Virus genome (UHGV): UHGV-0185643
Origin: a virus
Reading direction: 5' to 3' (one strand)
DNA: 48,591 bases
Shown here: positions 1-37,844 of the stretch, piece after piece
Position numbering within the stretch: the stretch's first letter is position 1
Layout: every line of letters starts with the position of its first letter
The notes under the pieces: model-generated
Database searches by the model: none
Seen by the model: only the letters and a program-made list of their open reading frames with translations
What the model was told of the DNA's origin: nothing
Translations under genes and position numbers: made by a program

Positions 1-774
1 ATGTCATCAGAAAATTTTGTCACCTTCTGGCTCGCTAGAGCCGATCTTCCATACTTTCTTGAACCTCATGAATTTTACGTTTCGGAGGCCAAGCGTAGAC
101 TTCTATCGCAGTTTGGCGATTTAGAACAAGAAGCAGAAAGGAGGGAACAACAGTATTTGGAAGCTACCTCAAAATATTTCGATCCTGATAACGATGATCC
201 AATGGCTGCCTACGAGCAAGCCTACCACGTGGGAATTAATTATGTATGGTCGCTTCTGGAGATGCAAAATACCGTGTTGTTGGCATTAACGGCAGGAATG
301 TACCACCAGTTTGATAAAAAACTAAGAGAACACACCATCAAAGAACTAAGTAACTGGTGCAAAAGAGAATTAATTACTCCCATGATCTGGAATATAACTT
401 TCCATCAGCTTATTGATTTACTCGAATGGATTGGCCTCAAAATCAATGGAACCGGATACGGAGAGAGGATCAAAGCCTGTAACTTGGTAGTAAACGTATA
501 CAAGCATGGGGACGGGCCTGCGCATCAAACACTATCATTCAATCATCCTGAGTACTATCAACACCCTACCGATGTTCGAGGTACGCAGAACATACATGAC
601 CATGATGATTTACATGTATCAGAAGAGCAATTTGTAGAGTTTGCTGACGCAATAACTGAATTCTGGAAAGCAGTTCCAGAGAATTGCTATTACTCAGATC
701 TCAAAGAAGAACCCAAATGGTTGAGTAAAGTCGTAACAAAATTCGATAAAAAACAGAAGGGAAATAGGGACTAA
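1..774 (+). CDS. Hypothetical protein (257 aa), AT-rich cargo-like gene; may be 5'-truncated by the window edge
   Basis: ORF begins with ATG at position 1 and runs to a stop at 772-774; no motif I recognise. Confidence 0.4.
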   Translation: MSSENFVTFWLARADLPYFLEPHEFYVSEAKRRLLSQFGDLEQEAERREQQYLEATSKYFDPDNDDPMAAYEQAYHVGINYVWSLLEMQNTVLLALTAGMYHQFDKKLREHTIKELSNWCKRELITPMIWNITFHQLIDLLEWIGLKINGTGYGERIKACNLVVNVYKHGDGPAHQTLSFNHPEYYQHPTDVRGTQNIHDHDDLHVSEEQFVEFADAITEFWKAVPENCYYSDLKEEPKWLSKVVTKFDKKQKGNRD

Positions 775-882
775 TTACCCATCTCAAAACATCAAGTTTG
801 CAGTGCCCTGCTCCCCGTTTATTAGTATGGAAGTTAACAATGTCTGCTTCTGACACATAACAGCCCTTAAGATGGTAACTCG

Positions 883-932
883 CCGTCATGGGGTGTCGGG
901 GGTCGGAGGTTCAAATCCTCTCGTGCCGACCA
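883..932 (+). tRNA. Partial tRNA-Pro-like sequence (anticodon loop with GGG, T-arm GGAGG-TTCAAAT-CCTCT, acceptor 3' strand CGTGCCG, discriminator A, CCA); 5' half degenerate or absent, so a pseudo-tRNA or att-site remnant
   Basis: Cloverleaf 3' half folds by eye and matches tRNA-Pro T-arm and acceptor sequences recalled from E. coli; upstream sequence does not form a D-arm or acceptor 5' strand. Confidence 0.6.
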
Positions 933-945
933 AAAATCCTCGAAG

Positions 946-972
946 AACCAGCCTGTTACGGCTGGTTTTTTT
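946..972 (+). terminator. Rho-independent terminator following the tRNA-Pro fragment
   Basis: Stem AACCAGCC / GGCTGGTT with 6-nt loop followed by a T7 run. Confidence 0.7.
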
Positions 973-1062
973 ATGCCTGTTTTCTGAACGGGGAAGCAAC
1001 GGGGAATAATTGGGGAAAAACCCCGACACAAAACATCGACTTTACCGTAAAGTTTCAGCTAT

Positions 1063-1452
1063 TCACATCACTGGGCAGTCATCAAACTCCGCGTTCCTGG
1101 CATCATTAATGATGTACGTGATAACACCAAATATTGCGTGTGAAGAATTATAGCCATCACCGTCTTCTGGCAGCACTTCTCTTCTCCCGTTCTCCAGATT
1201 TATCAGGTGGGGCTGAGGGTGAGTTCGGTATCGCTTGATCCTGAATTCCCCATCTATCGCGCATATCAGCAGCGAGCCATCACAGGCTGAAAGCGACGCG
1301 TCCACAACAAGTAGTGCCCCCTGGATTATCCCTTCCCTGAAATGTGAACACGATGCCCGCATGAAATAAGTCGCTGCGGGCTGGCTGATTAGCTGTTGAT
1401 CGAGGGAAATCCTTGTTTCAACGTAATCACTGGCAGGTGAAGGGAAGCCCAT
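1063..1452 (-). CDS. UmuD'/HumD-like S24 peptidase-fold protein starting directly at the GFPSPA motif (no N-terminal arm, no cleavage site)
   Basis: Translation MGFPSPASDYVE...DGEFRIKRY aligns by eye to UmuD from its post-cleavage residue; longer ORF 1063..1551 trimmed to the internal Met because the upstream ORF stops at 1455; no umuC follows. Confidence 0.7.
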   Translation of the reverse strand: MGFPSPASDYVETRISLDQQLISQPAATYFMRASCSHFREGIIQGALLVVDASLSACDGSLLICAIDGEFRIKRYRTHPQPHLINLENGRREVLPEDGDGYNSSHAIFGVITYIINDARNAEFDDCPVM

Positions 1453-1454
1453 GG

Positions 1455-1694
1455 CTATAGTCCTCCGTTTGGATTGAAAAGCTGAAAGGTACGGTTCTCC
1501 CCTTCCTGCGTTGATACATCGCGGAATGATGTCACATACCACTCGATCCATTCGTTAGCCTGCTTCATCGTCCAGTTCCAGTTAACCTTGCTCAGTTCCT
1601 GGACAAACCGCTGTGTGGTGACGGTCTTCCGGCCATTAGGTTCTTGCTGTATCGAAGCATGCCAGGCCATTTCAATATCGCTGCGTCGTGGCAT
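1455..1694 (-). CDS. Hypothetical small protein (79 aa) immediately upstream of, and probably co-transcribed with, the UmuD'-like gene
   Basis: ORF with ATG at 1694 preceded by GAGGGG Shine-Dalgarno at 7-nt spacing; stop 3 nt before the UmuD'-like start. Confidence 0.45.
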   Translation of the reverse strand: MPRRSDIEMAWHASIQQEPNGRKTVTTQRFVQELSKVNWNWTMKQANEWIEWYVTSFRDVSTQEGENRTFQLFNPNGGL

Positions 1695-1736
1695 CAATTA
1701 ACCCCTCTTGAATACCGGATAAAAACACAGTATAAA

Positions 1737-1756
1737 TACTGTATATCCATCCAGTA
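1737..1756. promoter_or_regulatory. Candidate LexA (SOS) box TACTGTATATCCATCCAGTA in the divergent promoter region between the small-ORF/UmuD'-like operon and the DinI-family gene
   Basis: CTGT-N8-CCAG with flanking TA/TA, the same variant I recall for the E. coli dinI operator; lies 17 bp upstream of the 1773 start codon. Confidence 0.6.
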
Positions 1757-1772
1757 AAGATGACTACAAGAA

Positions 1773-2015
1773 ATGTTCGTGGAACTCGTTTATGACAAAA
1801 GGAATTTTGATGGGCTGCCTGGTGCAAAAGATATCATTCTGGGCGAATTGACCAAGAGGGTTCACCGGATCTTCCCCGATGCTGATGTTCGGGTTAAACC
1901 GATGATGACACTGCCGGCGATCAACACTGACGCCAGCAAGCATGAGAAGGAACAGATAAGCCGTACTGTTCAGGAAATGTTTGAAGAAGCTGATATGTGG
2001 CTGGTTTCAGATTAA
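1773..2015 (+). CDS. DinI-family protein (80 aa)
   Basis: Length and C-terminal motif EKEQISRTVQEMFEEADMWLVSD resemble DinI (…QRISEILQETWESADDWF…); preceded by an SOS-box-like site. Confidence 0.65.
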   Translation: MFVELVYDKRNFDGLPGAKDIILGELTKRVHRIFPDADVRVKPMMTLPAINTDASKHEKEQISRTVQEMFEEADMWLVSD

Positions 2016-2143
2016 ACACCTTGAACCGTCATATTGCTTAAGTACAATCCGCCGTGACTGGCAATCATTCAATACTCGCACTATCGAACGTTCGCCAGTC
2101 GGCCGCAATCATGCTCTTGCATACGGCGTGGTTGCGGCAACCG

Positions 2144-3700
2144 TCAATTTTGCTGGCTACCTTTCAGCGTCTCAATCACATTCTTCAGGGAATTGAGTTC
2201 AGACATCTGTTCCTTCATCGCTCTGCCCATATAAACCATAGCGCATGCCATATCGGCCATAATGACATTATTATCAAGGGCAAGGGTATCGTCTTTGAGA
2301 CCAACCTCAATCTGATGGTCAACATATTCGTTACCGGACTCATCCACACCAACAACGTCCTCAAAAACAGGTCCACCAGGCACTATCTTTACGTACTGCG
2401 GATCAACTTTAGTCAGATCCTGGGCAATAAGGCCAAAACGCTGTGTATCCGACCCCTTATACTTAAACATGGTCGGTAACCACTGCATGACACGGTCGAA
2501 ACTGTCTTTCCCGTCCCGATATTGGATATCTTCTTTTAGATCGCGGTCTGATGTCGCATTCTTGGCGAACACGTACGATCCCTGCCAGTTTGACCCGGAT
2601 TCGTTCCATACGTCAGTAGTGATATCACCAGACTGAGGATTGAATCTGAACATCCTGTGATATCTGGCATCGCCCATAAAATGTAAGACGCCATGTGGCC
2701 AGCCATTGGCACCATTAGAAATGAGTCCCAGTGACAGACGAGTACTCCACCCACCCGATGCAGAAGAACCACCAGAAACGATTGGAGCCCAGCCACCATC
2801 ATTTCCACCAACAATGGCGGACCAGTAAGGGGTGGTCCATGGACCATCAACATCCCCCCAGCCACCCGATCCGCACTGTCCCCAGAAACCACGTGGTGAT
2901 TGTATAACCCCACCATAACCAGAAAGAAAGTTGAAACGGTATGTGTTCGCTCCTGCTCCAAAACTATTCGCGATTAGAGCAATGGCATCCAGATAATTAC
3001 CCGCACCTCGTATCCCGCCAAACTGATAGAACGAATTCCCCATCCACCCCTGCAGCTGGTTCATCATCCAGCCCAGTTCACCATCAACGTTATTCGACGT
3101 CAGTAAAATATCCTTCTTGACGCCAGCAGTGCTTTTGACGCCTGTACCCGACCCACCCGCCACCGAATTGACGCCACGGGTGCCAAGAACACTACCGAAC
3201 GTAACATCCTGAGAGTTTCCCAAAGTGAGATTATCGCGGGCCGCATTTTTATCAGGCAGATCGGCCAGGGCCTGGCTTTTCAACAAAGCATTATTGATCT
3301 GATCAATAATGCTTTTCCATGATGGTCCTGTAAACTCCGTATTGTCAGGAAGCCTGACAGTAATATTGCCGTTCGCAGAGAATAAAAGTTGCCAGTTCTG
3401 TTTGTCGTAATTCAGCCCCCGCAGCGCCTCCGTGTTCTGCACCACCATTGCGGCAGTAACCATATTCAGCGCCACACGAGGAACAGCTGACCAGGCCGCG
3501 CCAGATTGGGTTGGCCCGGTGTAATTGCTGACCAGCGTCAACGCTGTACCACTTTCCACGGACTTAACCGGAAGCGTATAGGGAACACCACCGACCGTAA
3601 CAACAATAAAATCTCCGGCCGCCACCTCAGTGGTAAACGCGGTCCCGCTGCCAGCGACCGCAGCCGAGTTATTCATCAGGGTTAATGTTCCTGCTGACAT
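2144..3700 (-). CDS. Tail fiber protein with C-terminal S74-type intramolecular chaperone (self-cleaving) domain
   Basis: Gly/Ser-rich repeats; C-terminal SDRDLKEDIQ...RFGLIAQDL...VDPQYV motif typical of endosialidase-chaperone domains; AGGAG RBS upstream of ATG. Confidence 0.75.
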   Translation of the reverse strand: MSAGTLTLMNNSAAVAGSGTAFTTEVAAGDFIVVTVGGVPYTLPVKSVESGTALTLVSNYTGPTQSGAAWSAVPRVALNMVTAAMVVQNTEALRGLNYDKQNWQLLFSANGNITVRLPDNTEFTGPSWKSIIDQINNALLKSQALADLPDKNAARDNLTLGNSQDVTFGSVLGTRGVNSVAGGSGTGVKSTAGVKKDILLTSNNVDGELGWMMNQLQGWMGNSFYQFGGIRGAGNYLDAIALIANSFGAGANTYRFNFLSGYGGVIQSPRGFWGQCGSGGWGDVDGPWTTPYWSAIVGGNDGGWAPIVSGGSSASGGWSTRLSLGLISNGANGWPHGVLHFMGDARYHRMFRFNPQSGDITTDVWNESGSNWQGSYVFAKNATSDRDLKEDIQYRDGKDSFDRVMQWLPTMFKYKGSDTQRFGLIAQDLTKVDPQYVKIVPGGPVFEDVVGVDESGNEYVDHQIEVGLKDDTLALDNNVIMADMACAMVYMGRAMKEQMSELNSLKNVIETLKGSQQN

Positions 3701-3758: not shown

Positions 3759-3998
3759 TCATTGAGGGCAATTCGAACTGGTGAAATTATTTTTATTCAC
3801 CCATCGCCAGTTAAAGGGATAACCGGCCCTGTACTCAGTCTGATTAACAACTTTTTGCACACCGTAAATTTGCACTGACTGGGGCTGTCCACCAAGCACT
3901 AACTCAGCCTGACAAACCGGTTTCTGTTTCTCCAGAACAGGTCCTGAACAGGCTGAAAGCACCAGGCAGACAATAACTGGAATAATTATATTTTTCAT
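3759..3998 (-). CDS. Small lipoprotein (79 aa, lipobox LSAC) moron between tail-fiber-region genes; candidate superinfection-exclusion (Cor/Llp-like in position) protein
   Basis: N-terminal signal peptide MKNIIIPVIVCLVLSAC with lipobox; AT-rich flanks; own terminator downstream. Confidence 0.6.
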   Translation of the reverse strand: MKNIIIPVIVCLVLSACSGPVLEKQKPVCQAELVLGGQPQSVQIYGVQKVVNQTEYRAGYPFNWRWVNKNNFTSSNCPQ

Positions 3999-4106
3999 TT
4001 CGATACCAGAGTTAATTATTTAAACAAAAAATAACCAATGGCATTGAATAATAAAAATAGTTTTAATAGATCAATATTCTAAAATTGATCGTTTAAATCG
4101 ATCAGT

Positions 4107-4781
4107 TTAATCATATGCAGCTGTGTTTATCGCCGTTATCACAATTCCACTATTTGTCGTACCGATTGAAGAGCCGCTTGCTGTTGTTGATGTAAGTCCT
4201 TTTATTCTCGTTCCCGCACCTTCATTGAAGCAACCTGTACCCACATCCACAGACTGAATGATTGGCTGTCCACCAGGTGCCGAACCAGCATGAAGGAGAA
4301 CAGATCCCAGCCCCATCGGATTTATGGCCCATTTGCCTGCCATGTATGTATCAATGTTAAGCCCACCACTTACAGCACCTGGTGAACCAATAGTTGTAAG
4401 GTCGCTTAATACCCGGGACTCATTCGTAAGTACCAGTGTCCCTTCGGCATCCCATATAGCCACCCCCCAGGCAGGAAGCGTAAGCGGATATATGGCAAAA
4501 AAATAGGCCTCAAGGACAAAAGCCGATCCCCTGTAATTAGACGCATTAACACTGAACGTATTGCCACTTTTTGAAGCTGATATCTTCGCCGGGGCGCTGG
4601 TTCGTGCAAATGCAATCCCTCCCTTCTGACCGTCGATAGTAACAGACGCCGAAACACTGTTAAAATTCCCCCCAAAAGTTGAGTTTACAGTGACTTTCCG
4701 GTAAAGCGTCATTGGTGTGGAATCAGGCGTGATAAAAGGGTTCCCGTTAGGTAATGAAATCAATGCGCCATATTTAGCCAT
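4107..4781 (-). CDS. Hypothetical tail-associated protein (224 aa) downstream of J
   Basis: ORF translationally coupled to the preceding ORF; Gly/Ser/Thr-rich; no recognisable motif. Confidence 0.5.
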   Translation of the reverse strand: MAKYGALISLPNGNPFITPDSTPMTLYRKVTVNSTFGGNFNSVSASVTIDGQKGGIAFARTSAPAKISASKSGNTFSVNASNYRGSAFVLEAYFFAIYPLTLPAWGVAIWDAEGTLVLTNESRVLSDLTTIGSPGAVSGGLNIDTYMAGKWAINPMGLGSVLLHAGSAPGGQPIIQSVDVGTGCFNEGAGTRIKGLTSTTASGSSIGTTNSGIVITAINTAAYD

Positions 4782-5096
4782 CTACGCAGTCTCCGCAAAA
4801 ACGATTAACTGCACTTTGACTGCCGGGTAATCATTAATCCCATCACTACCTGAAGGCTGTATTGTTATGGTGTTTCCAGATGCAATAATATTTCTTTTAT
4901 CTGTGTAACTTATTGTCCCTTTATCCTCCAGAGTACCAACCGCAAAACCGACCTTTAAACCGGGCTCGAGGTTGAACTGGTAGCTTCCCGTTTTCTGACC
5001 TAAAGCAAGATCGATGATTCCCACCACGGTTACAGGTTTAATGCCATAGTTATTCGGGACACCGTTAGCGTCCCATGTCTGAATTCCCCATGTCAT
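4782..5096 (-). CDS. Hypothetical tail-associated protein (104 aa) immediately downstream of J
   Basis: ORF start overlaps the J stop codon (coupled). Confidence 0.5.
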   Translation of the reverse strand: MTWGIQTWDANGVPNNYGIKPVTVVGIIDLALGQKTGSYQFNLEPGLKVGFAVGTLEDKGTISYTDKRNIIASGNTITIQPSGSDGINDYPAVKVQLIVFAETA

Positions 5097-8000
5097 CAGA
5101 ATACCCCTGTTAATTTGCCAATCTGCACGCGGAGAACGCCATTGCCATCTTTAACGCTGTAATTCAGATTGGTCATTTTCGTTGCCCCCTCCCCGGCAAC
5201 AGCCCCATTCATTTCAAACGTTCCGTCTGATTTCATAATGGTGCCTGTTTGTCCCTGAACATAATTAGCGGAGCGCAGTTCGCCAATTTTTGCCAGAGTG
5301 ATTTGACTATACTGAATAAAAGCATCGCTGATAAACACCTGACCATTAATAGAAGCAAACGGAGAATATTGTGTATCACCGCTGCCACTCATCAGGACGA
5401 ACTGATTGGCGTTAAAGCCGACACGGGTGACTACCGGCTTACCCGCTTCGGCCAGCACGGCAATCGACATCCCGGCGTTATACATCACACCGTTTATTCG
5501 AACTCCGGTTTTAAGAGTGTAAATTGCAGATGCCCCGGTCGCATCAACCACGGCGGTGAGCTTATCTTCCAGCGCGGCAGTCACATCATTGAACTGCGCC
5601 TGCACCTGCGTCGACATTTCAGCCATGGCTTTATCGACCTGCGCAATGGTCGTTTTAACCACCAGAATATCCGCGCGTACCTCGCCGTACTGCGCCCACT
5701 GGTGTTCCACGGTTGCATGGTTGGCCAGCGCGTTCTGCAATGCGGCTTCGAGATTGGTATCAATGTCGCCAGTCAGGCGGTCACCGTCGGCAGATGTCAG
5801 GAAGTCATCAGCAATATCGCCCAGGTAGTCGTCAGCATTCGCATTAGATTCACCACGAACCCAGTCGGTCCAGTCACTCTGATTACCAATGCGATCAACC
5901 AGACGAGCCCGGTACCAGAACTCCTGACCTGCCTTCAAACCCAGTTGGGTATATGTGTGTTGAGGATACGGAACTCCTGCAAGCAGCAGAGGATTATCCC
6001 CATTTCCGTTTGCTGAATACTGCAGTTCGGTCTGGAGAGTATCACCTGTATCCGCCGGAAAGGACCAGTCAGCCTGTATGCCCCAGTTGATTGCTGTGGT
6101 GCGCAGACCAACCGGCTTGGGAACATCCCCAGTACGTCCAGTGAGATGAGTCAGCACAGAAGAGGTCCACAAACTGGACGCTCCACCAGAGTTAATGGCG
6201 CGGACTCTCACGAGGTAATCGCCTGAGAAAATCCCGGCGATCTCTATATTGCGCAAGCCTGTTTCGGGAATGTTGATCCACTCATTATCACCACGTTTCC
6301 ACTGTGCCTGATACGCGACAATATCCGCCTGAGGTTTCCCGTTTTTATCTACTGGCGCATCCCAACTCGCAACCATGGTTGCAATACGCTGCCCCTGCCG
6401 GACCGAGTCGTAACTGCTAATCGCGATATTCGTGGGCTGGCTAACCAGGCCTATCGGTAACAGACTAATCGGCGGCGTATCCAGCCGGGCGTTGTTATCA
6501 ACGGCATCGTACTTAGCCCCGTTGTACTCTGCACCGGTGATACTGTAGGTGTTCTCTTCATCGTTAAATGTCAGATTGGTTACACGGAAATACTGGAGGC
6601 GCAACTGGCCTGCATCGATAACAAAAATGGCATTAGGTTGTGGCTCAGCGGTAAAGGCAGTAGCCAGTATCAGTTGCTGGCCGTTAACCGCCTGAATGGT
6701 TCTGCTCTCAACGGTACCGCCCAGGGTACGAATCATCAGCGTATCACCCGCCACCGCACTCGTGCCGCGATCGGTAGTTACTGACTTCAACCCTGCATCG
6801 TAATCAGTAATACGTCCACCATAGACACGCCCAGACAGCCGCTCATCTGCAAACGCAAATACGGTCCCCGGCACATAAGCGAAGCCATCGAGTCCCGTCT
6901 GGACAGTGATAATACGGTCCAGAGAATTGGAGTACACTGCCCAACCACCCCGGCGCTGAGCTTCGCTTTCACGTGTGCAGCCAATCGCGGTTAGCTGAGT
7001 CTGCTTAAACTTGAACTGCTTAACCAGATCGGGAAACATCACTGCAGTAGTGCGATCCTGATAGTGGTTATCCGGGTCACTAAAGTTAATCAGCGCTGAG
7101 CTATAGCGATTCTTTTCACTGCCGCTGGAATAGGTTGGTTTCCCGACCACAGAGGCACGGGTGAGGATCTGAAGTTTTGACGTATCCGCAGGCATATCAG
7201 AGACAACATTGAACATGTTGTTGCCCCAGAAAGTCATTCCGTTGAAGCCCGCGGCAATATCTTTAATCACCTGCCAGGCATCAGCCTGGGACTGGATGTA
7301 AACGTCAAACATGAAGCGTGGCTCGGTAACGCTTCCGCCTTTCCCGTCGGGTACCTTCTGGTCGCAGCGCTGGGCGATGCGATAGAGCTCCCACTTATCG
7401 AGCATTTCTGGCGTCACGCGGCGCCCAAGACCGAAGCGCGGCTCAGTCACAACATCGAACCAAATCCACGCCGGGTTATTCGTCCAGCCCCATTTAAACG
7501 TCCCGTCCCATGTTCCGCTATAAGTCCGCGCTATTGGATCATAGTTCGAAGGGATTCGGATGATGCGCCCCTTCGGCATGCAGGAAATCTTAGGGATGTT
7601 GTTGAATGACTTTGCGTTAAAGGACACGTACAGCAGCGCTGTGTGTGGATATCGTAGGCGAGCATCGATCACCTCAGTAATCGCTTGCACCTGCGTTTTG
7701 TTCTGCAGCATCTGGCTGGTGCTGTCATCGGTGTCACGCACCACTCGAATTTGCCAGCCAGTGCTGGCTTTGGGAAGATTAATACGGTGGGTTAGTTCAT
7801 AGAGCGAACTGAGCTTCTCTGTGACGGTTTTAGTCATGACTGTCGAGTAAGCGCCACCGTCCACCGCAAGGTCAATATGGTACTGAACCGTGGTGCCGAC
7901 AATATCCCCATCGTTTTCCTGCTGCTGTAACCCAGGGATGCCAATACGAACCAGCACCGCGTCAATCTGGGTGTTACTCAGTGCGCGGGTCCATGGTGTG

Positions 8001-35273: not shown

Positions 35274-35507
35274 CTAATAAAACCAGTCGTCAGCGCTTTC
35301 CCAGGTATCCTGGAGGATTGATTCAATTTTCTTTTTATCGTCCTTGTCACCGCCAAAAACACTTAACCCATCCGACCCGGCACGGCGGATTGTGAGCCTG
35401 CAATTGTCATAGTGATCATTCAGGCGCTTAAGCAATTCTTTCTCCAGTGCAGGAACCGCGCCTTTAGGAAGTTCTTTCATACGATCAATGGTTAATTCAA
35501 CTTTCAT
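35274..35507 (-). CDS. DinI-family protein (second paralogue)
   Basis: MKVELTIDR...KKKIESILQDTWESADDWFY closely resembles the DinI C-terminus; perfect LexA box upstream. Confidence 0.75.
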   Translation of the reverse strand: MKVELTIDRMKELPKGAVPALEKELLKRLNDHYDNCRLTIRRAGSDGLSVFGGDKDDKKKIESILQDTWESADDWFY

Positions 35508-35525
35508 AATGGCCTCCAATGCATA

Positions 35526-35545: not shown

Positions 35546-35814
35546 TACCTATGAGAGGAAATGATCAACGTTTTAAGAGCACAAATTGTTAATTTCCTGT
35601 CAGGAATAAAAAAAGAAAACCCGCCGTAGCGGGTTGAATTCGTGATGGTTTATAAAGATGTAATTTCTTTCTACTGACAAATCTATGGCTACCCATTTAC
35701 CCTCAAACGTGAATACAGCATACGCGCCGACATACTGATTATCTCTTTGTGGATCGGGATATGATCAACCTTCTGCCAGAACGTAAAACTTGATGCCGCT
35801 GACAAATAAACAGC

Positions 35815-36075
35815 TCATTGTTTCTTCTCGTTCTGGGCTGCCATATCCAGATAGCGCGGGTCGGATGCTCTCGGTAATGTCAGACTTTGCTCGCGATAGT
35901 AGCGCACACGCTCCATGAAGTATTCGCGGAGATGCTCTGGCTGATCACGGGCTTCCTGTTCAGCGATAACCGGCATGTTCAGGCGCTCTTTGTCCGCTAC
36001 TCCGGATGCTGCAAAGTCAACGTTAACCTTGTCCTGCTCTTCTTTCGGCTTGGCTGCAATGTTATGGTTGGACAT
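35815..36075 (-). CDS. Hypothetical protein (86 aa)
   Basis: ORF only. Confidence 0.4.
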   Translation of the reverse strand: MSNHNIAAKPKEEQDKVNVDFAASGVADKERLNMPVIAEQEARDQPEHLREYFMERVRYYREQSLTLPRASDPRYLDMAAQNEKKQ

Positions 36076-36165
36076 GGTAATCTCACCGGTTAGCTGAGGG
36101 AACGATTCTCCTCAACTTGATCATTCAATCTGATTTGTAATCTTCCGAAATTTGAAATAACATCT

Positions 36166-36570
36166 TTACTTTAATTTATATATTAAACAATCCACAATAT
36201 CCAAACCATTAACCATACTATTTGAAAGTCGAACTTTGCTATTTTCAATAGAGAATGCTCCTTTCATCATTTTATAAATAAAAGCAGACTCTCCTTTAGC
36301 TTCGATTGCTTCAAGTGGTATGGAATGGTATTTATTTGATCTATTATCTCTATTGATTTGACTTATAAGGCTATAAACGAATGTAGGCCCTTTCTCCTCA
36401 AGATCACTTATTACCAAAATATATTTCCAAGAAAACATTTCCCCATAAAAAAACCACATGGCAGCGGATAAAGCTACTCCTTTCTTCTCTAACTCTTTCA
36501 TTAGAAATTGGCCAGAATTTTCCATAGAGGTCGTCATTGAGTGACCTATTACCAGTGACTTCTTACCCAT
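36166..36570 (-). CDS. Hypothetical protein (134 aa), downstream partner of the HEPN-like gene in an AT-rich cassette
   Basis: ORF overlapping the upstream gene by 22 nt; strongly AT-rich; no recognised motif. Confidence 0.45.
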   Translation of the reverse strand: MGKKSLVIGHSMTTSMENSGQFLMKELEKKGVALSAAMWFFYGEMFSWKYILVISDLEEKGPTFVYSLISQINRDNRSNKYHSIPLEAIEAKGESAFIYKMMKGAFSIENSKVRLSNSMVNGLDIVDCLIYKLK

Positions 36571-36971
36571 TGCAAAACTCCAGATTGATTATTCTCAGCT
36601 GCTTCGATGAGCTGCTCCGCCATAGCCCGACTGATAGTAGTTTCGTAGCGGAGTTGTTCACTCCAATCCTTCATAACAGTCCAAAATATTTCAAACTGCC
36701 CATCCTGGGCAGCTAATTGTCTATGTGATAGTTGTAGGCTCGCCACCTGCATGAGCTTTGTTAGATCATGAACATGTGAGTCCATGGCTAACTTCTTGTC
36801 AGGAAATTGAAATGCCGTCACATTTTTTGCTATACATGCTTTAAGAGCGCACTCAACTGCGTATCCGCAGAGGTAGTATGCACCATGATATAATCCATTC
36901 TGTAACAGACATTTTGCTTCCGTTAACCTTATACCAGTTAAAACTTCTAGGTCAGATTTATTCATTTGCAA
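36549..36971 (-). CDS. HEPN-like alpha-helical protein (140 aa)
   Basis: N-terminal helix pattern AKCLLQNGLYHGAYYLCGYAVECALKACIAK resembles the HEPN signature; downstream SHVH; AT-rich. Confidence 0.5.
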   Translation of the reverse strand: MQMNKSDLEVLTGIRLTEAKCLLQNGLYHGAYYLCGYAVECALKACIAKNVTAFQFPDKKLAMDSHVHDLTKLMQVASLQLSHRQLAAQDGQFEIFWTVMKDWSEQLRYETTISRAMAEQLIEAAENNQSGVLQWVRSHW

Positions 36972-37083
36972 ATATTCTAATTTTCTTTCATAGGCACATG
37001 GTACTCATTGAGTGTAATTCTTTCCAACAAATTATCAGATATATACGATAAAAGGTCGCTTGATCAATTTTCGGAGCTAGGAG

Positions 37084-37536
37084 CTAAATGATGTGAAGGC
37101 GCGGCTCCCCGTTTTTCGGCTCAGGCCACTGACGCTGCTTATTCACCGCCAACTTTTCTACCATCGCCTGGTTAATCTGCTCGTCACTGATACCGGCACG
37201 ACGTTGCGCATCCCATAACAGGAATTGCATGTCAGCCCATTCGCTAAGGTCGCCTGGTTCAGCAGCAGCCTCGAGTGCTTCTTTGGAAAGGTGCTTCAGC
37301 GGACCAACTGGACCGACATCGCCGAAAGTAGCCAGTGACCACGCTGCATGTTCACGGCGTACTTGTTCGCGGGCCATCGACTCCAGAACCCCATTAAACA
37401 CCTTCACAGCATCAGCCATTGCGTAGCCGAGATTGCCGCCGTCGCTTTGTGCTGCTGCTTTGCTGAGTATTTCTCTTATCTGGTGCAGGCGATTGAGTGA
37501 TACAGGACCGTTCGCCGGGTGGTTGTTAGTGGTCAT
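37084..37536 (-). CDS. DUF550/MazG-like nucleotide pyrophosphohydrolase-domain protein (putative)
   Basis: Start trimmed to the internal Met MTTNNHP (ATGA-coupled to the upstream gene); family assigned from recall, unverified. Confidence 0.4.
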   Translation of the reverse strand: MTTNNHPANGPVSLNRLHQIREILSKAAAQSDGGNLGYAMADAVKVFNGVLESMAREQVRREHAAWSLATFGDVGPVGPLKHLSKEALEAAAEPGDLSEWADMQFLLWDAQRRAGISDEQINQAMVEKLAVNKQRQWPEPKNGEPRLHII

Positions 37537-37844
37537 ACTGATGCTCTCCCGTAAAATGCCAGAACCCGCTTCATCGCCGGACTTGTACGGCATACTGAAG
37601 TAACCATGTTTTTTCTCATGTTCGATTTGATCTGCTTGATATTCAGTTCCCCGCCTAGTTGCAGCGAATAGACCGGGTGATGTGGCTCCCCAGCGCGAAT
37701 AACTACTGCCCTACGTACCAGGTGAAGCAGCAGGTTGTGTGCTTTCTTGCAGTCGCATCCCAGCAGGTTCTGAACCTGACGCGGGGTTATGGTCTGGTTA
37801 ACCCGAAGGAAATCGACAATTGCCCACAGTGATTTGCTTGCCAT
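37533..37844 (-). CDS. Hypothetical protein (103 aa)
   Basis: ORF between the DnaC-like and DUF550-like genes. Confidence 0.4.
   Translation of the reverse strand: MASKSLWAIVDFLRVNQTITPRQVQNLLGCDCKKAHNLLLHLVRRAVVIRAGEPHHPVYSLQLGGELNIKQIKSNMRKNMVTSVCRTSPAMKRVLAFYGRASV

Follow-up and report, generated by a model that had tools for sequence, protein, structure and literature searches.

A HEPN gene joined to a partner gene by a conserved 22-nt overlap: a probable toxin-antitoxin-like or anti-phage module in a lambdoid prophage

HEPN modules and the closest described systems

Modules that contain HEPN proteins are a well-known kind in mobile elements. In the type VII system HepT-MntA, the gene for the minimal nucleotidyltransferase (MNT) lies upstream of the HEPN gene, and MntA AMPylates HepT. 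Most type II modules have the antitoxin gene first. Another system, RnlAB, is associated with mobile elements and phages. Its antitoxin, RnlB, is a fully folded alpha/beta protein that is encoded after the HEPN toxin RnlA and binds the canonical HEPN dimer (PMC8266594). HepS, a HEPN protein whose role in abortive infection is proven, is encoded in an accessory slot after the replication genes of Gifsy-1 (PMC13043305). Departures from the canonical HEPN site have also been described: in the ‘HEPN-T’ group of Anantharaman et al., typified by AF0298, the motif arginine is kept and the motif histidine is lost; a second, strongly conserved N-terminal histidine was proposed as an alternative active site, and these proteins were predicted to be still catalytic (PMC3710099). 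Lastly, the DefensePredictor system DS-28 is a two-gene operon in which a HEPN-family nuclease is paired with a hypothetical protein, and its phage defense has been validated in E. coli (PMC13092281).

The cassette described here lies on the minus strand of a 48,591-nt stretch of viral DNA (UHGV-0185643), which will be called the window, and consists of a HEPN gene followed by a partner gene. As the same pair with the same 22-nt overlap is found in more than a dozen bacterial phyla, sequence comparison suggests that it is probably a toxin-antitoxin-like or anti-phage module. Our literature search yielded no description of the pair; a HEPN-like system, ‘Esos’, is known from integron cassettes. 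The novelty lies in the partner family, in the placing of the HEPN gene first, in the non-canonical site of the HEPN protein and in the invariance of the 22-nt junction.

HepT-MntA resembles the cassette in being a small two-gene module with overlapping genes, a HEPN protein of around 140 aa and a mobile, patchy distribution. The resemblance extends to an invariant tyrosine (Y107) adjacent to the motif arginine (R106) of our HEPN protein. Minimal nucleotidyltransferases are the best structural matches of the partner model, but weak ones. However, the gene order is reversed, with the HEPN gene first; the partner has neither G[GS] nor DxD motifs and no profile similarity to an MNT family; and the HEPN protein lacks the histidine of the Rx4-6H motif. 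Comparison of the HEPN family with a DUF86 HepT using hhalign revealed no similarity, and R106 cannot therefore be mapped onto the canonical motif.

RnlA-RnlB and LsoA-LsoB share with the cassette the location of the HEPN gene in first place, followed by a gene for a small, folded alpha/beta protein (the partner model has a pLDDT of 93.7). By analogy, RnlA-RnlB is the closest functional parallel to the mechanism proposed below; at the sequence level, no homology was found between the cassette proteins and either RnlA, which has three domains, or RnlB. Like type II toxin-antitoxin modules in general, the cassette is an autonomous, mobile, two-gene operon of small proteins in variable contexts. 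It differs from them in lacking a DNA-binding domain for autoregulation: no HTH, RHH or AbrB domain was detected in the HEPN protein or in its partner.

HepS is also a small HEPN protein encoded in an equivalent slot of a lambdoid prophage, but it works alone, has a canonical R100-H105 motif and forms a tetramer triggered by tail-tip proteins (PMC13043305). When the window HEPN protein was searched with tblastn against a phage collection that included the LT2 Gifsy-1 record, only Klebsiella phage Kp4864-1 was matched; hence HepS and the window HEPN protein are not detectably homologous at E ≤ 1e-5. AF0298 (PDB 2hsb) and its HEPN-T relatives offer a parallel for the active site: they match Pfam family PF05168, as the window protein does, and R106 and H66 would be the counterparts of the retained arginine and the second histidine. 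In contrast, the usual partner of AF0298-type proteins is a genuine MNT encoded upstream, and our HEPN family has no PDB sequence match at E ≤ 10.

Among defense-related profiles, PADLOC PDC-M28A was matched by all 26 HEPN proteins aligned in this study (best E 2.4e-10). It was the only defense-library match of the window protein (E 2.9e-9, 35.5 bits), and its 138 positions equal the size of this HEPN protein. Given the weak scores, the HEPN family may be considered related, not identical, to PDC-M28A; moreover, none of 118 members of the partner family matched any PDC-M28 component. DS-28 is different, as its HEPN protein has 163 aa and the accessions differ (PMC13092281). The accessions of the E. 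coli variant of our cassette, WP_001038620.1 and WP_000520500.1, were not found in those supplements of that paper that were examined.

The cassette genes and their products

Two minus-strand open reading frames make up the cassette: one at 36549..36971, with 140 codons if translation starts at a TTG (36971), and another at 36166..36570, which starts with ATG and encodes the partner, a 134-aa protein of an alpha/beta family. They overlap by 22 nt (36549..36570), from the ATG of the partner (36570-36568) to the stop codon of the HEPN gene (36551-36549). The HEPN homologs are almost all 138 aa long and begin with MNKSDLE or MNRxDLQ, so the most likely start is the ATG at 36965, and the gene would thus span 36549..36965. 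The original prediction of two ORFs with a 22-nt overlap and a 134-aa partner was therefore right, while the 140 aa attributed to the HEPN protein should probably be 138. A Shine-Dalgarno-like GGAG element of the partner gene is found at 36578..36581, at −11 to −8 from its ATG.

Upstream of the HEPN gene, an AT-rich intergenic region of 118 nt (36966..37083, minus strand) separates it from a MazG/Eaa-like gene (37084-37593) and may contain a promoter of the cassette's own. Downstream of the partner gene, a 90-nt spacer (36076..36165, minus strand) marks the edge of the low-GC block and leads to a gene for a homolog of the theta subunit of pol III (35815-36075). Measured in 300-nt windows, the GC content ranges from 0.32 to 0.44 across 36050-37099, compared with 0.52 downstream (35750-36049) and 0.56 upstream (37100-37399), which bears out the sharply AT-rich block noticed at first sight.

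According to PHROG assignments, the minus-strand genes that precede the cassette are, in order, an O-like initiator, a DnaC-like loader, a Ren-like gene and the MazG/Eaa-like gene, whose Citrobacter counterpart carries PF04447. Those that follow are the theta-like gene, a terminator, a DinI-like gene (35274-35519), NinB and NinG. The cassette lies indeed between the replication module and the DinI-like gene, as initially proposed; its immediate downstream neighbor is, however, the theta homolog and not DinI. An intrinsic-terminator-like hairpin (35618..35635, minus strand), with 7 pairs including 5 G-C and followed by a T run, is located between the theta-like and DinI-like genes.

Comparison with the copy in Klebsiella phage Kp4864-1 yielded dN/dS ratios of 0.07 for the HEPN gene and 0.10 for the partner gene; hence, both are under purifying selection. 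These ratios, together with the existence of homologs across phyla, indicate that both ORFs are real genes.

The HEPN assignment was made initially from an N-terminal helix pattern, YYLCGYAVECALKACI, which is present in the upstream protein and turned out to be the most conserved block of its family; it was chosen as the search pattern for the locus scan described below. The assignment itself was borne out by Pfam: residues 16-127 match PF05168 (clan KNTase_C) with 27.8 bits, above the gathering cut-off of 22 (E 2.9e-6). Homologs form more than 2,600 clusters in bacteria and some archaea, and many of them either carry PF05168 or are named ‘HEPN domain-containing protein’. An alignment of 26 diverse members, with 44-72% identity to the window protein and a mean column identity of 60%, revealed a set of invariant residues that includes R13, E38, C39, K42, H66, W95, W101, S102, E103, R106, Y107, G129, W133 and W138. 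These 26 sequences do not share a canonical Rx4-6H motif: R106 is invariant, and no histidine is conserved 5-7 residues after it. The invariant histidine of the family, H66, lies on the N-terminal side of R106. As the canonical motif is missing, the HEPN protein could be non-catalytic. A profile search of PDB with the HEPN family produced no match even at E ≤ 10.

The partner had been described as a protein without any recognizable motif, and so it remains: searched alone or as a 118-member family, it gave no meaningful sequence match in Pfam, NCBIfam, PADLOC or PDB. Hits to eL20 (E 0.044) and pyruvate oxidase (E 0.12) were discarded as chance-level matches. PHROG 5760, to which the partner is assigned, has no function given. 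The partner thus belongs to a family without a Pfam entry, a solved structure or a described function. A word-indexed protein search had suggested that the family was restricted to enteric bacteria (11 enterobacterial clusters); this view was overturned by an exhaustive profile search, which retrieved 387 representatives at E ≤ 0.001. Conserved residues are G20, W39, W48, G61, P62, Y66, R114, G122, D127, Y131 and R/K132.

A first model of the partner, built from 8 sequences, was poor (pLDDT 61) and was superseded by an AlphaFold2 model based on the 118-sequence alignment (pLDDT 93.7, pTM 0.88), which predicts a compact alpha/beta domain. Its predicted elements are a helix (14-29), a hairpin (34-42/47-54), helices within 57-75, a strand (89-92), another helix (97-103) and a second hairpin (113-120/123-133). 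Foldseek searches with this model against PDB and BFVD gave no significant match; Foldseek TM-scores were only 0.32-0.37. The best structural matches, albeit weak, were minimal nucleotidyltransferases, and structure search revealed no match to any known toxin.

Sequence features of nucleotidyltransferases were sought in the 118 partner members, and none was seen: strand 1 is not followed by G[GS], strand 2 carries no [DE]x[DE], and the strand pattern of a third carboxylate is missing. Alignment of the partner family with an MNT family using hhalign gave a probability of 0.3% (for one MNT subfamily) and revealed no similarity to a single MNT sequence, and no nucleotidyltransferase family appears among the 25 Pfam families listed for the 118 members. 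Membership of the partner in a nucleotidyltransferase family is thus not supported. Because PF05168 HEPN proteins classically pair with an MNT, however, the partner may have a fold derived from that of an MNT but catalytically dead.

A conserved junction in a widespread pair

A scan of bacterial and archaeal collections, with one genome per species, detected at least 591 relatives, and 80 loci were kept for analysis. Their hosts belong to Acidobacteriota, Desulfobacterales, Methylococcaceae, Planctomycetota, Gemmatimonadales, Verrucomicrobia, Nitrospirota, Latescibacterota, classes of Chloroflexi, Ignavibacteriae, Bacteroidales, Microbispora and Veillonellaceae. Directly downstream of the HEPN gene, and in the same orientation, lies an ORF of the partner family in 78 of these loci; the remaining two are interrupted by the end of a contig. 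The HEPN gene is the upstream member in all 78 complete loci as well as in the window, and of the 84 junctions that could be evaluated, 79 have an overlap of exactly 22 nt. One locus (L047) contains an apparent in-frame fusion of both genes. The arrangement, regarded from the outset as different from the classical MNT-HEPN order, is therefore no local quirk but a trait conserved across phyla.

The association was also found when the search started from distant homologs of either protein. Downstream of the HEPN gene in Acinetobacter, a betaproteobacterium and a Bacteroidota species, the next gene encodes in all three cases a protein of about 135 aa, with 22-52% identity to the window partner, and the overlap is again 22 nt except in one of them (L007), where a shorter gene has been called. 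The Acinetobacter pair adjoins phage lysis genes, umuDC and an AbiH gene. Starting from two distant partner homologs, we found directly upstream a 5'-truncated gene annotated as HEPN (L098) and an unannotated gene of 138 codons (L099).

Examination of 75 distinct junctions showed how two reading frames and a translation signal are accommodated in the same DNA. The ATG of the partner is embedded in the codon for the invariant Trp133 of the HEPN protein (A|TGG), and the HEPN stop codon follows the invariant Trp138. The GG dinucleotide at −11/−10 is invariant and comes from the codon for the invariant Gly129; a Shine-Dalgarno-like tetramer (GGAG, AGGA or GGGG) is found in 64 of the 75 junctions, and that of the window, GGAG, is made of the Gly129 codon and the next base. 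A dual-coding junction with an embedded Shine-Dalgarno-like element argues for translational coupling and for a fixed ratio between the products. Programmed frameshifting within the overlap can be discarded, as no slippery heptamer is conserved among the 75 junctions. With two reading frames and a ribosome-binding site constraining one sequence, the junction provides an unusually clear case of its kind.

The two proteins do not evolve at the same pace: in 98% of locus pairs, the HEPN proteins resemble each other more closely than the partners do, with median identities of 49% and 34%, respectively, and both identities co-vary (r = 0.71). The slower-evolving member is usually the toxin.

Analysis of the surroundings revealed no preferred neighbor, as 144 flanking genes contained 182 Pfam families and none of these occurred more than three times. 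Most copies sit in non-phage chromosomal contexts, where the neighbors are for the most part housekeeping genes rather than defense islands; integrases and restriction subunits occur in a few cases. Two metagenome-assembled genomes carry two copies of the cassette each. Because flanking genes are unrelated between loci, the cassette can be viewed as an autonomous two-gene module rather than as a nin gene pair. We conclude that the pair is an ancient, near-obligate, autonomous module.

Among mobile elements the cassette is rare: of 50,697 phage records, only that of Klebsiella phage Kp4864-1 contains it, with 88.7% nucleotide identity, and of 72,556 plasmids only 2 do. In Salmonella phage FSL SP-016, which is syntenic, the cassette is missing from the interval that separates the Eaa-like gene from dinI. 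Three diverged variants were detected in enteric bacteria (Citrobacter freundii, E. coli and Klebsiella), with HEPN proteins from 58% to almost 100% identical to that of the window. All three occupy the part of a lambdoid prophage that separates the replication genes from the nin/Q genes, with different neighbors in each, and every enteric copy is preceded by a gap of more than 100 nt amid otherwise tightly packed operons. The E. coli variant (WP_001038620.1/WP_000520500.1 in O26), annotated in RefSeq as ‘HEPN domain-containing protein’ and ‘hypothetical protein’, is present in 190 of 5,426 complete E. coli genomes, O26 and O103 strains included, always in the chromosome and as a single copy. 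Low GC content, variable occupancy and the upstream gap of the enteric copies fit the description of a moron.

Scanning for promoters in the DNA that precedes the cassette yielded no more candidates than shuffled sequence did, be it in the window or in the variants from E. coli and Klebsiella. In the prophage under study, transcription might thus come only from the early-right operon during lytic growth. Isolated TATAAT boxes were seen by eye in two loci (L092 and L094) and were not treated as evidence.

A tentative mechanism and its alternatives

The reading that we favor, with a probability of roughly 55%, is that the HEPN protein acts on RNA as the effector, with the partner as its stoichiometric neutralizer, the two forming a mobile module acquired as a moron. 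According to this model, a lambdoid prophage would have acquired the self-contained module in a variable slot between the replication/ren and nin genes. The HEPN dimer would most likely act on RNA through a non-canonical site formed by Arg106/Tyr107 and the alternative His66. The partner, a dedicated and fully folded neutralizer or regulator of the HEPN protein, would be made in step with it thanks to the 22-nt overlap that holds its Shine-Dalgarno-like element and start codon. Neutralization would occur by binding and not by enzymatic modification, following the logic of RnlA-RnlB rather than that of HepT-MntA; an enzymatic mechanism seems unlikely because the partner has no G[GS] or DxD motif and no similarity to MNT profiles. 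Upon infection by another phage, or upon loss of the element, release of the HEPN protein might cause translation arrest and abort the infection. The identity of the toxic member, its RNA target, neutralization by binding and the anti-phage role are inferences; HEPN membership, the near-obligate pairing, the conserved overlap, the autonomy and patchy distribution of the module, its recurrent slot in prophages and the lack of nucleotidyltransferase motifs in the partner were observed directly.

Membership in the HEPN superfamily, the toxin-like asymmetry in conservation, the tight coupling of the genes, their toxin-antitoxin-like mobility and the precedents of RnlA-RnlB and HepS all speak for an effector and its neutralizer, as does the weak but consistent match to PADLOC PDC-M28A. 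Other observations count against this model: the Rx4-6H motif is absent, the antitoxin gene is usually the first in type II modules, a DNA-binding domain is missing from the partner, promoter counts do not exceed those expected by chance, plasmids and sequenced phages seldom carry the pair, and chromosomal copies have mostly housekeeping neighbors.

The roles might instead be reversed, with the 134-aa partner as the toxic or effector component and the HEPN protein as a non-catalytic antitoxin or regulator. The HEPN gene would then occupy the upstream position typical of type II antitoxins, its product lacks the Rx4-6H motif, and the conserved polar residues R114, D127, Y131, R/K132 and E/D44 of the partner could form an active site. 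We consider this reversal unlikely, however, since the HEPN protein bears the usual signature of a toxin, slower evolution, in 98% of comparisons and keeps E38, K42, H66, S102, E103, R106 and Y107 invariant, a set that exceeds the needs of a binding scaffold. A HEPN toxin gene in first place is not an anomaly either, rnlAB being a known example (PMC8266594), and the fold of the partner resembles no known toxin. Poorer still are the prospects of a type VII-like system in which the partner, a minimal nucleotidyltransferase of extreme divergence, would covalently modify the HEPN protein, for instance at the invariant Tyr107 next to Arg106, as MntA does with HepT. Against this view, the Foldseek TM-scores are only 0.32-0.37, the hhalign probability for an MNT family is 0.3%, the G[GS], [DE]x[DE] and third carboxylate patterns are missing from the 118 members, no nucleotidyltransferase is found among the 25 Pfam families listed for them, and the gene order is the reverse of MNT-HEPN.

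A role unrelated to conflict is also conceivable: the pair might be a two-subunit RNA- or nucleotide-binding regulatory complex that serves the lytic program, for instance in host takeover or counter-defense, and is expressed from the early-right operon. The lack of promoters above chance, the location of the cassette inside the O/P-ren-nin transcription unit and upstream of a terminator, the housekeeping neighbors of chromosomal copies and the rarity of the pair on plasmids all go in that direction. It is nonetheless an improbable explanation for a patchily distributed, mobile cassette with unrelated flanks, duplicated in each of two metagenome-assembled genomes, missing from nearly all related phages, preceded by a gap of more than 100 nt in all enteric copies despite their packed operons, and endowed with a HEPN protein related to a PADLOC defense candidate. 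A last and far more prosaic explanation, namely that we are dealing with an ordinary conserved pair of the nin region of lambdoid phages or with chance ORFs in AT-rich DNA, has in its favor the location among nin genes. The original prediction had contemplated the former possibility as one that would refute its reading of the cassette, and the data refute this possibility together with the latter, leaving them a negligible probability: one phage record among 50,697 harbors the cassette, FSL SP-016 lacks it, most copies are in non-phage contexts, the pair is found in Acidobacteriota, Desulfobacterales, Planctomycetota, Chloroflexota, Bacteroidota, Actinomycetota and other groups, and both genes are under purifying selection.

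Beyond the effector-neutralizer model, a more daring version, possible but held only tentatively, is that the cassette represents an unnamed, phylum-spanning HEPN module whose partner descends from an MNT antitoxin and, no longer catalytic, serves as an inhibitor or sensor that is purely stoichiometric and locked to the HEPN protein by translation, while the HEPN protein would be an RNase with an alternative His/Arg site, devoted to abortive infection in enterobacterial prophages. If so, the module might be an evolutionary bridge from enzymatic (type VII) to binding (type II) neutralization, and would provide abortive-infection defense to enterobacterial prophages, including those of Klebsiella and of O26 and O103 E. 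coli.

If the effector-neutralizer model itself is correct, the cassette would be a widespread, unnamed HEPN module, with at least 591 relatives and presence in 190 of 5,426 complete E. coli genomes, and its partner would add a new type of neutralizer to the biology of HEPN toxins. With only two genes of about 135 codons, available in prophages of E. coli, Klebsiella and Citrobacter, it would also be an easy experimental case for the study of HEPN proteins that lack the Rx4-6H motif. For lambdoid prophages, it would represent another defense cargo in the hotspot between the replication and nin genes.

Genes flanking the cassette in the prophage

The gene immediately 3' of the cassette encodes a homologue of the theta subunit of DNA polymerase III (HolE-like; 35815-36075, minus strand; PHROG 1105, E 4.8e-38), and short stretches of it are matched by theta genes from plasmids and chromosomes of E. 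coli. A strong intrinsic-terminator-like hairpin, made of 7 pairs (5 of them G-C) followed by a T run, is found on the same strand at 35618-35635, between the theta-like gene and dinI; the cassette lies upstream of it. The position of this hairpin, 3' of the replication genes, is similar to that of tR2 in phage lambda.

Elsewhere in the window, a MazG/Eaa-like ORF (37084-37593, minus strand), 169 aa long as listed, overlaps by 61 nt with a Ren-like ORF (37533-37844, minus strand). Because its Citrobacter counterpart has been called at 147 aa, the real start of the MazG/Eaa-like ORF is probably located farther downstream.

Length variants and joined frames of the pair

Some homologues of the partner, the 134-aa protein encoded downstream of the HEPN gene, carry C-terminal extensions. 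The one at locus L099 (654-1211, plus strand), reached from a distant homologue, is 185 aa long, includes a DUF1508 domain and overlaps the upstream gene by only 7 nt; the extended ORFs of L066 and L067 encode 256 aa (Microbispora) and 167 aa. A Desulfobacterales contig (L031) harbors a second, truncated ORF of the partner family (6308-6565, plus strand; profile positions 1-71), directly after a complete HEPN-partner pair.

Joining of the two frames is also detected. In one Pyrinomonadaceae metagenome-assembled genome (L047), a single ORF (5998-6801, plus strand) contains both, with the HEPN part at residues 2-129 and the partner part at residues 134-266; the two genes are either fused naturally or run together by a frameshift in the assembly. 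Among the protein search matches, a 178-aa 'eukprot' protein (P0010) is a chimera in which the C-terminus of a HEPN protein is combined with a full-length partner, and most likely reflects bacterial contamination of a eukaryotic dataset plus a gene-calling error.

Genomic neighbors of the pair in other bacteria

The pair is present in diverged form in Klebsiella prophages (L094-L096), whose early region upstream of it also encodes ParB-like HTH and DndB-domain proteins (about 1221-3082). The Acinetobacter copy (L001-L003) adjoins umuD/umuC-like genes (Peptidase_S24, IMS) and a gene containing an AbiH domain, at about 3883-5672 and 5884-6417, with prophage holin and endolysin genes adjacent. 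These surroundings may be a small cluster of defence or SOS cargo at one end of a prophage.

On a Bacteroidales contig (L068), a canonical pair made of MNT (FGS...SDIDM) and a DUF86 HepT (RNRIIHAY) is found at 500-1151 (minus strand), with the HEPN-partner module about 5 kb away. Therefore, the two kinds of HEPN module coexist in one genome.
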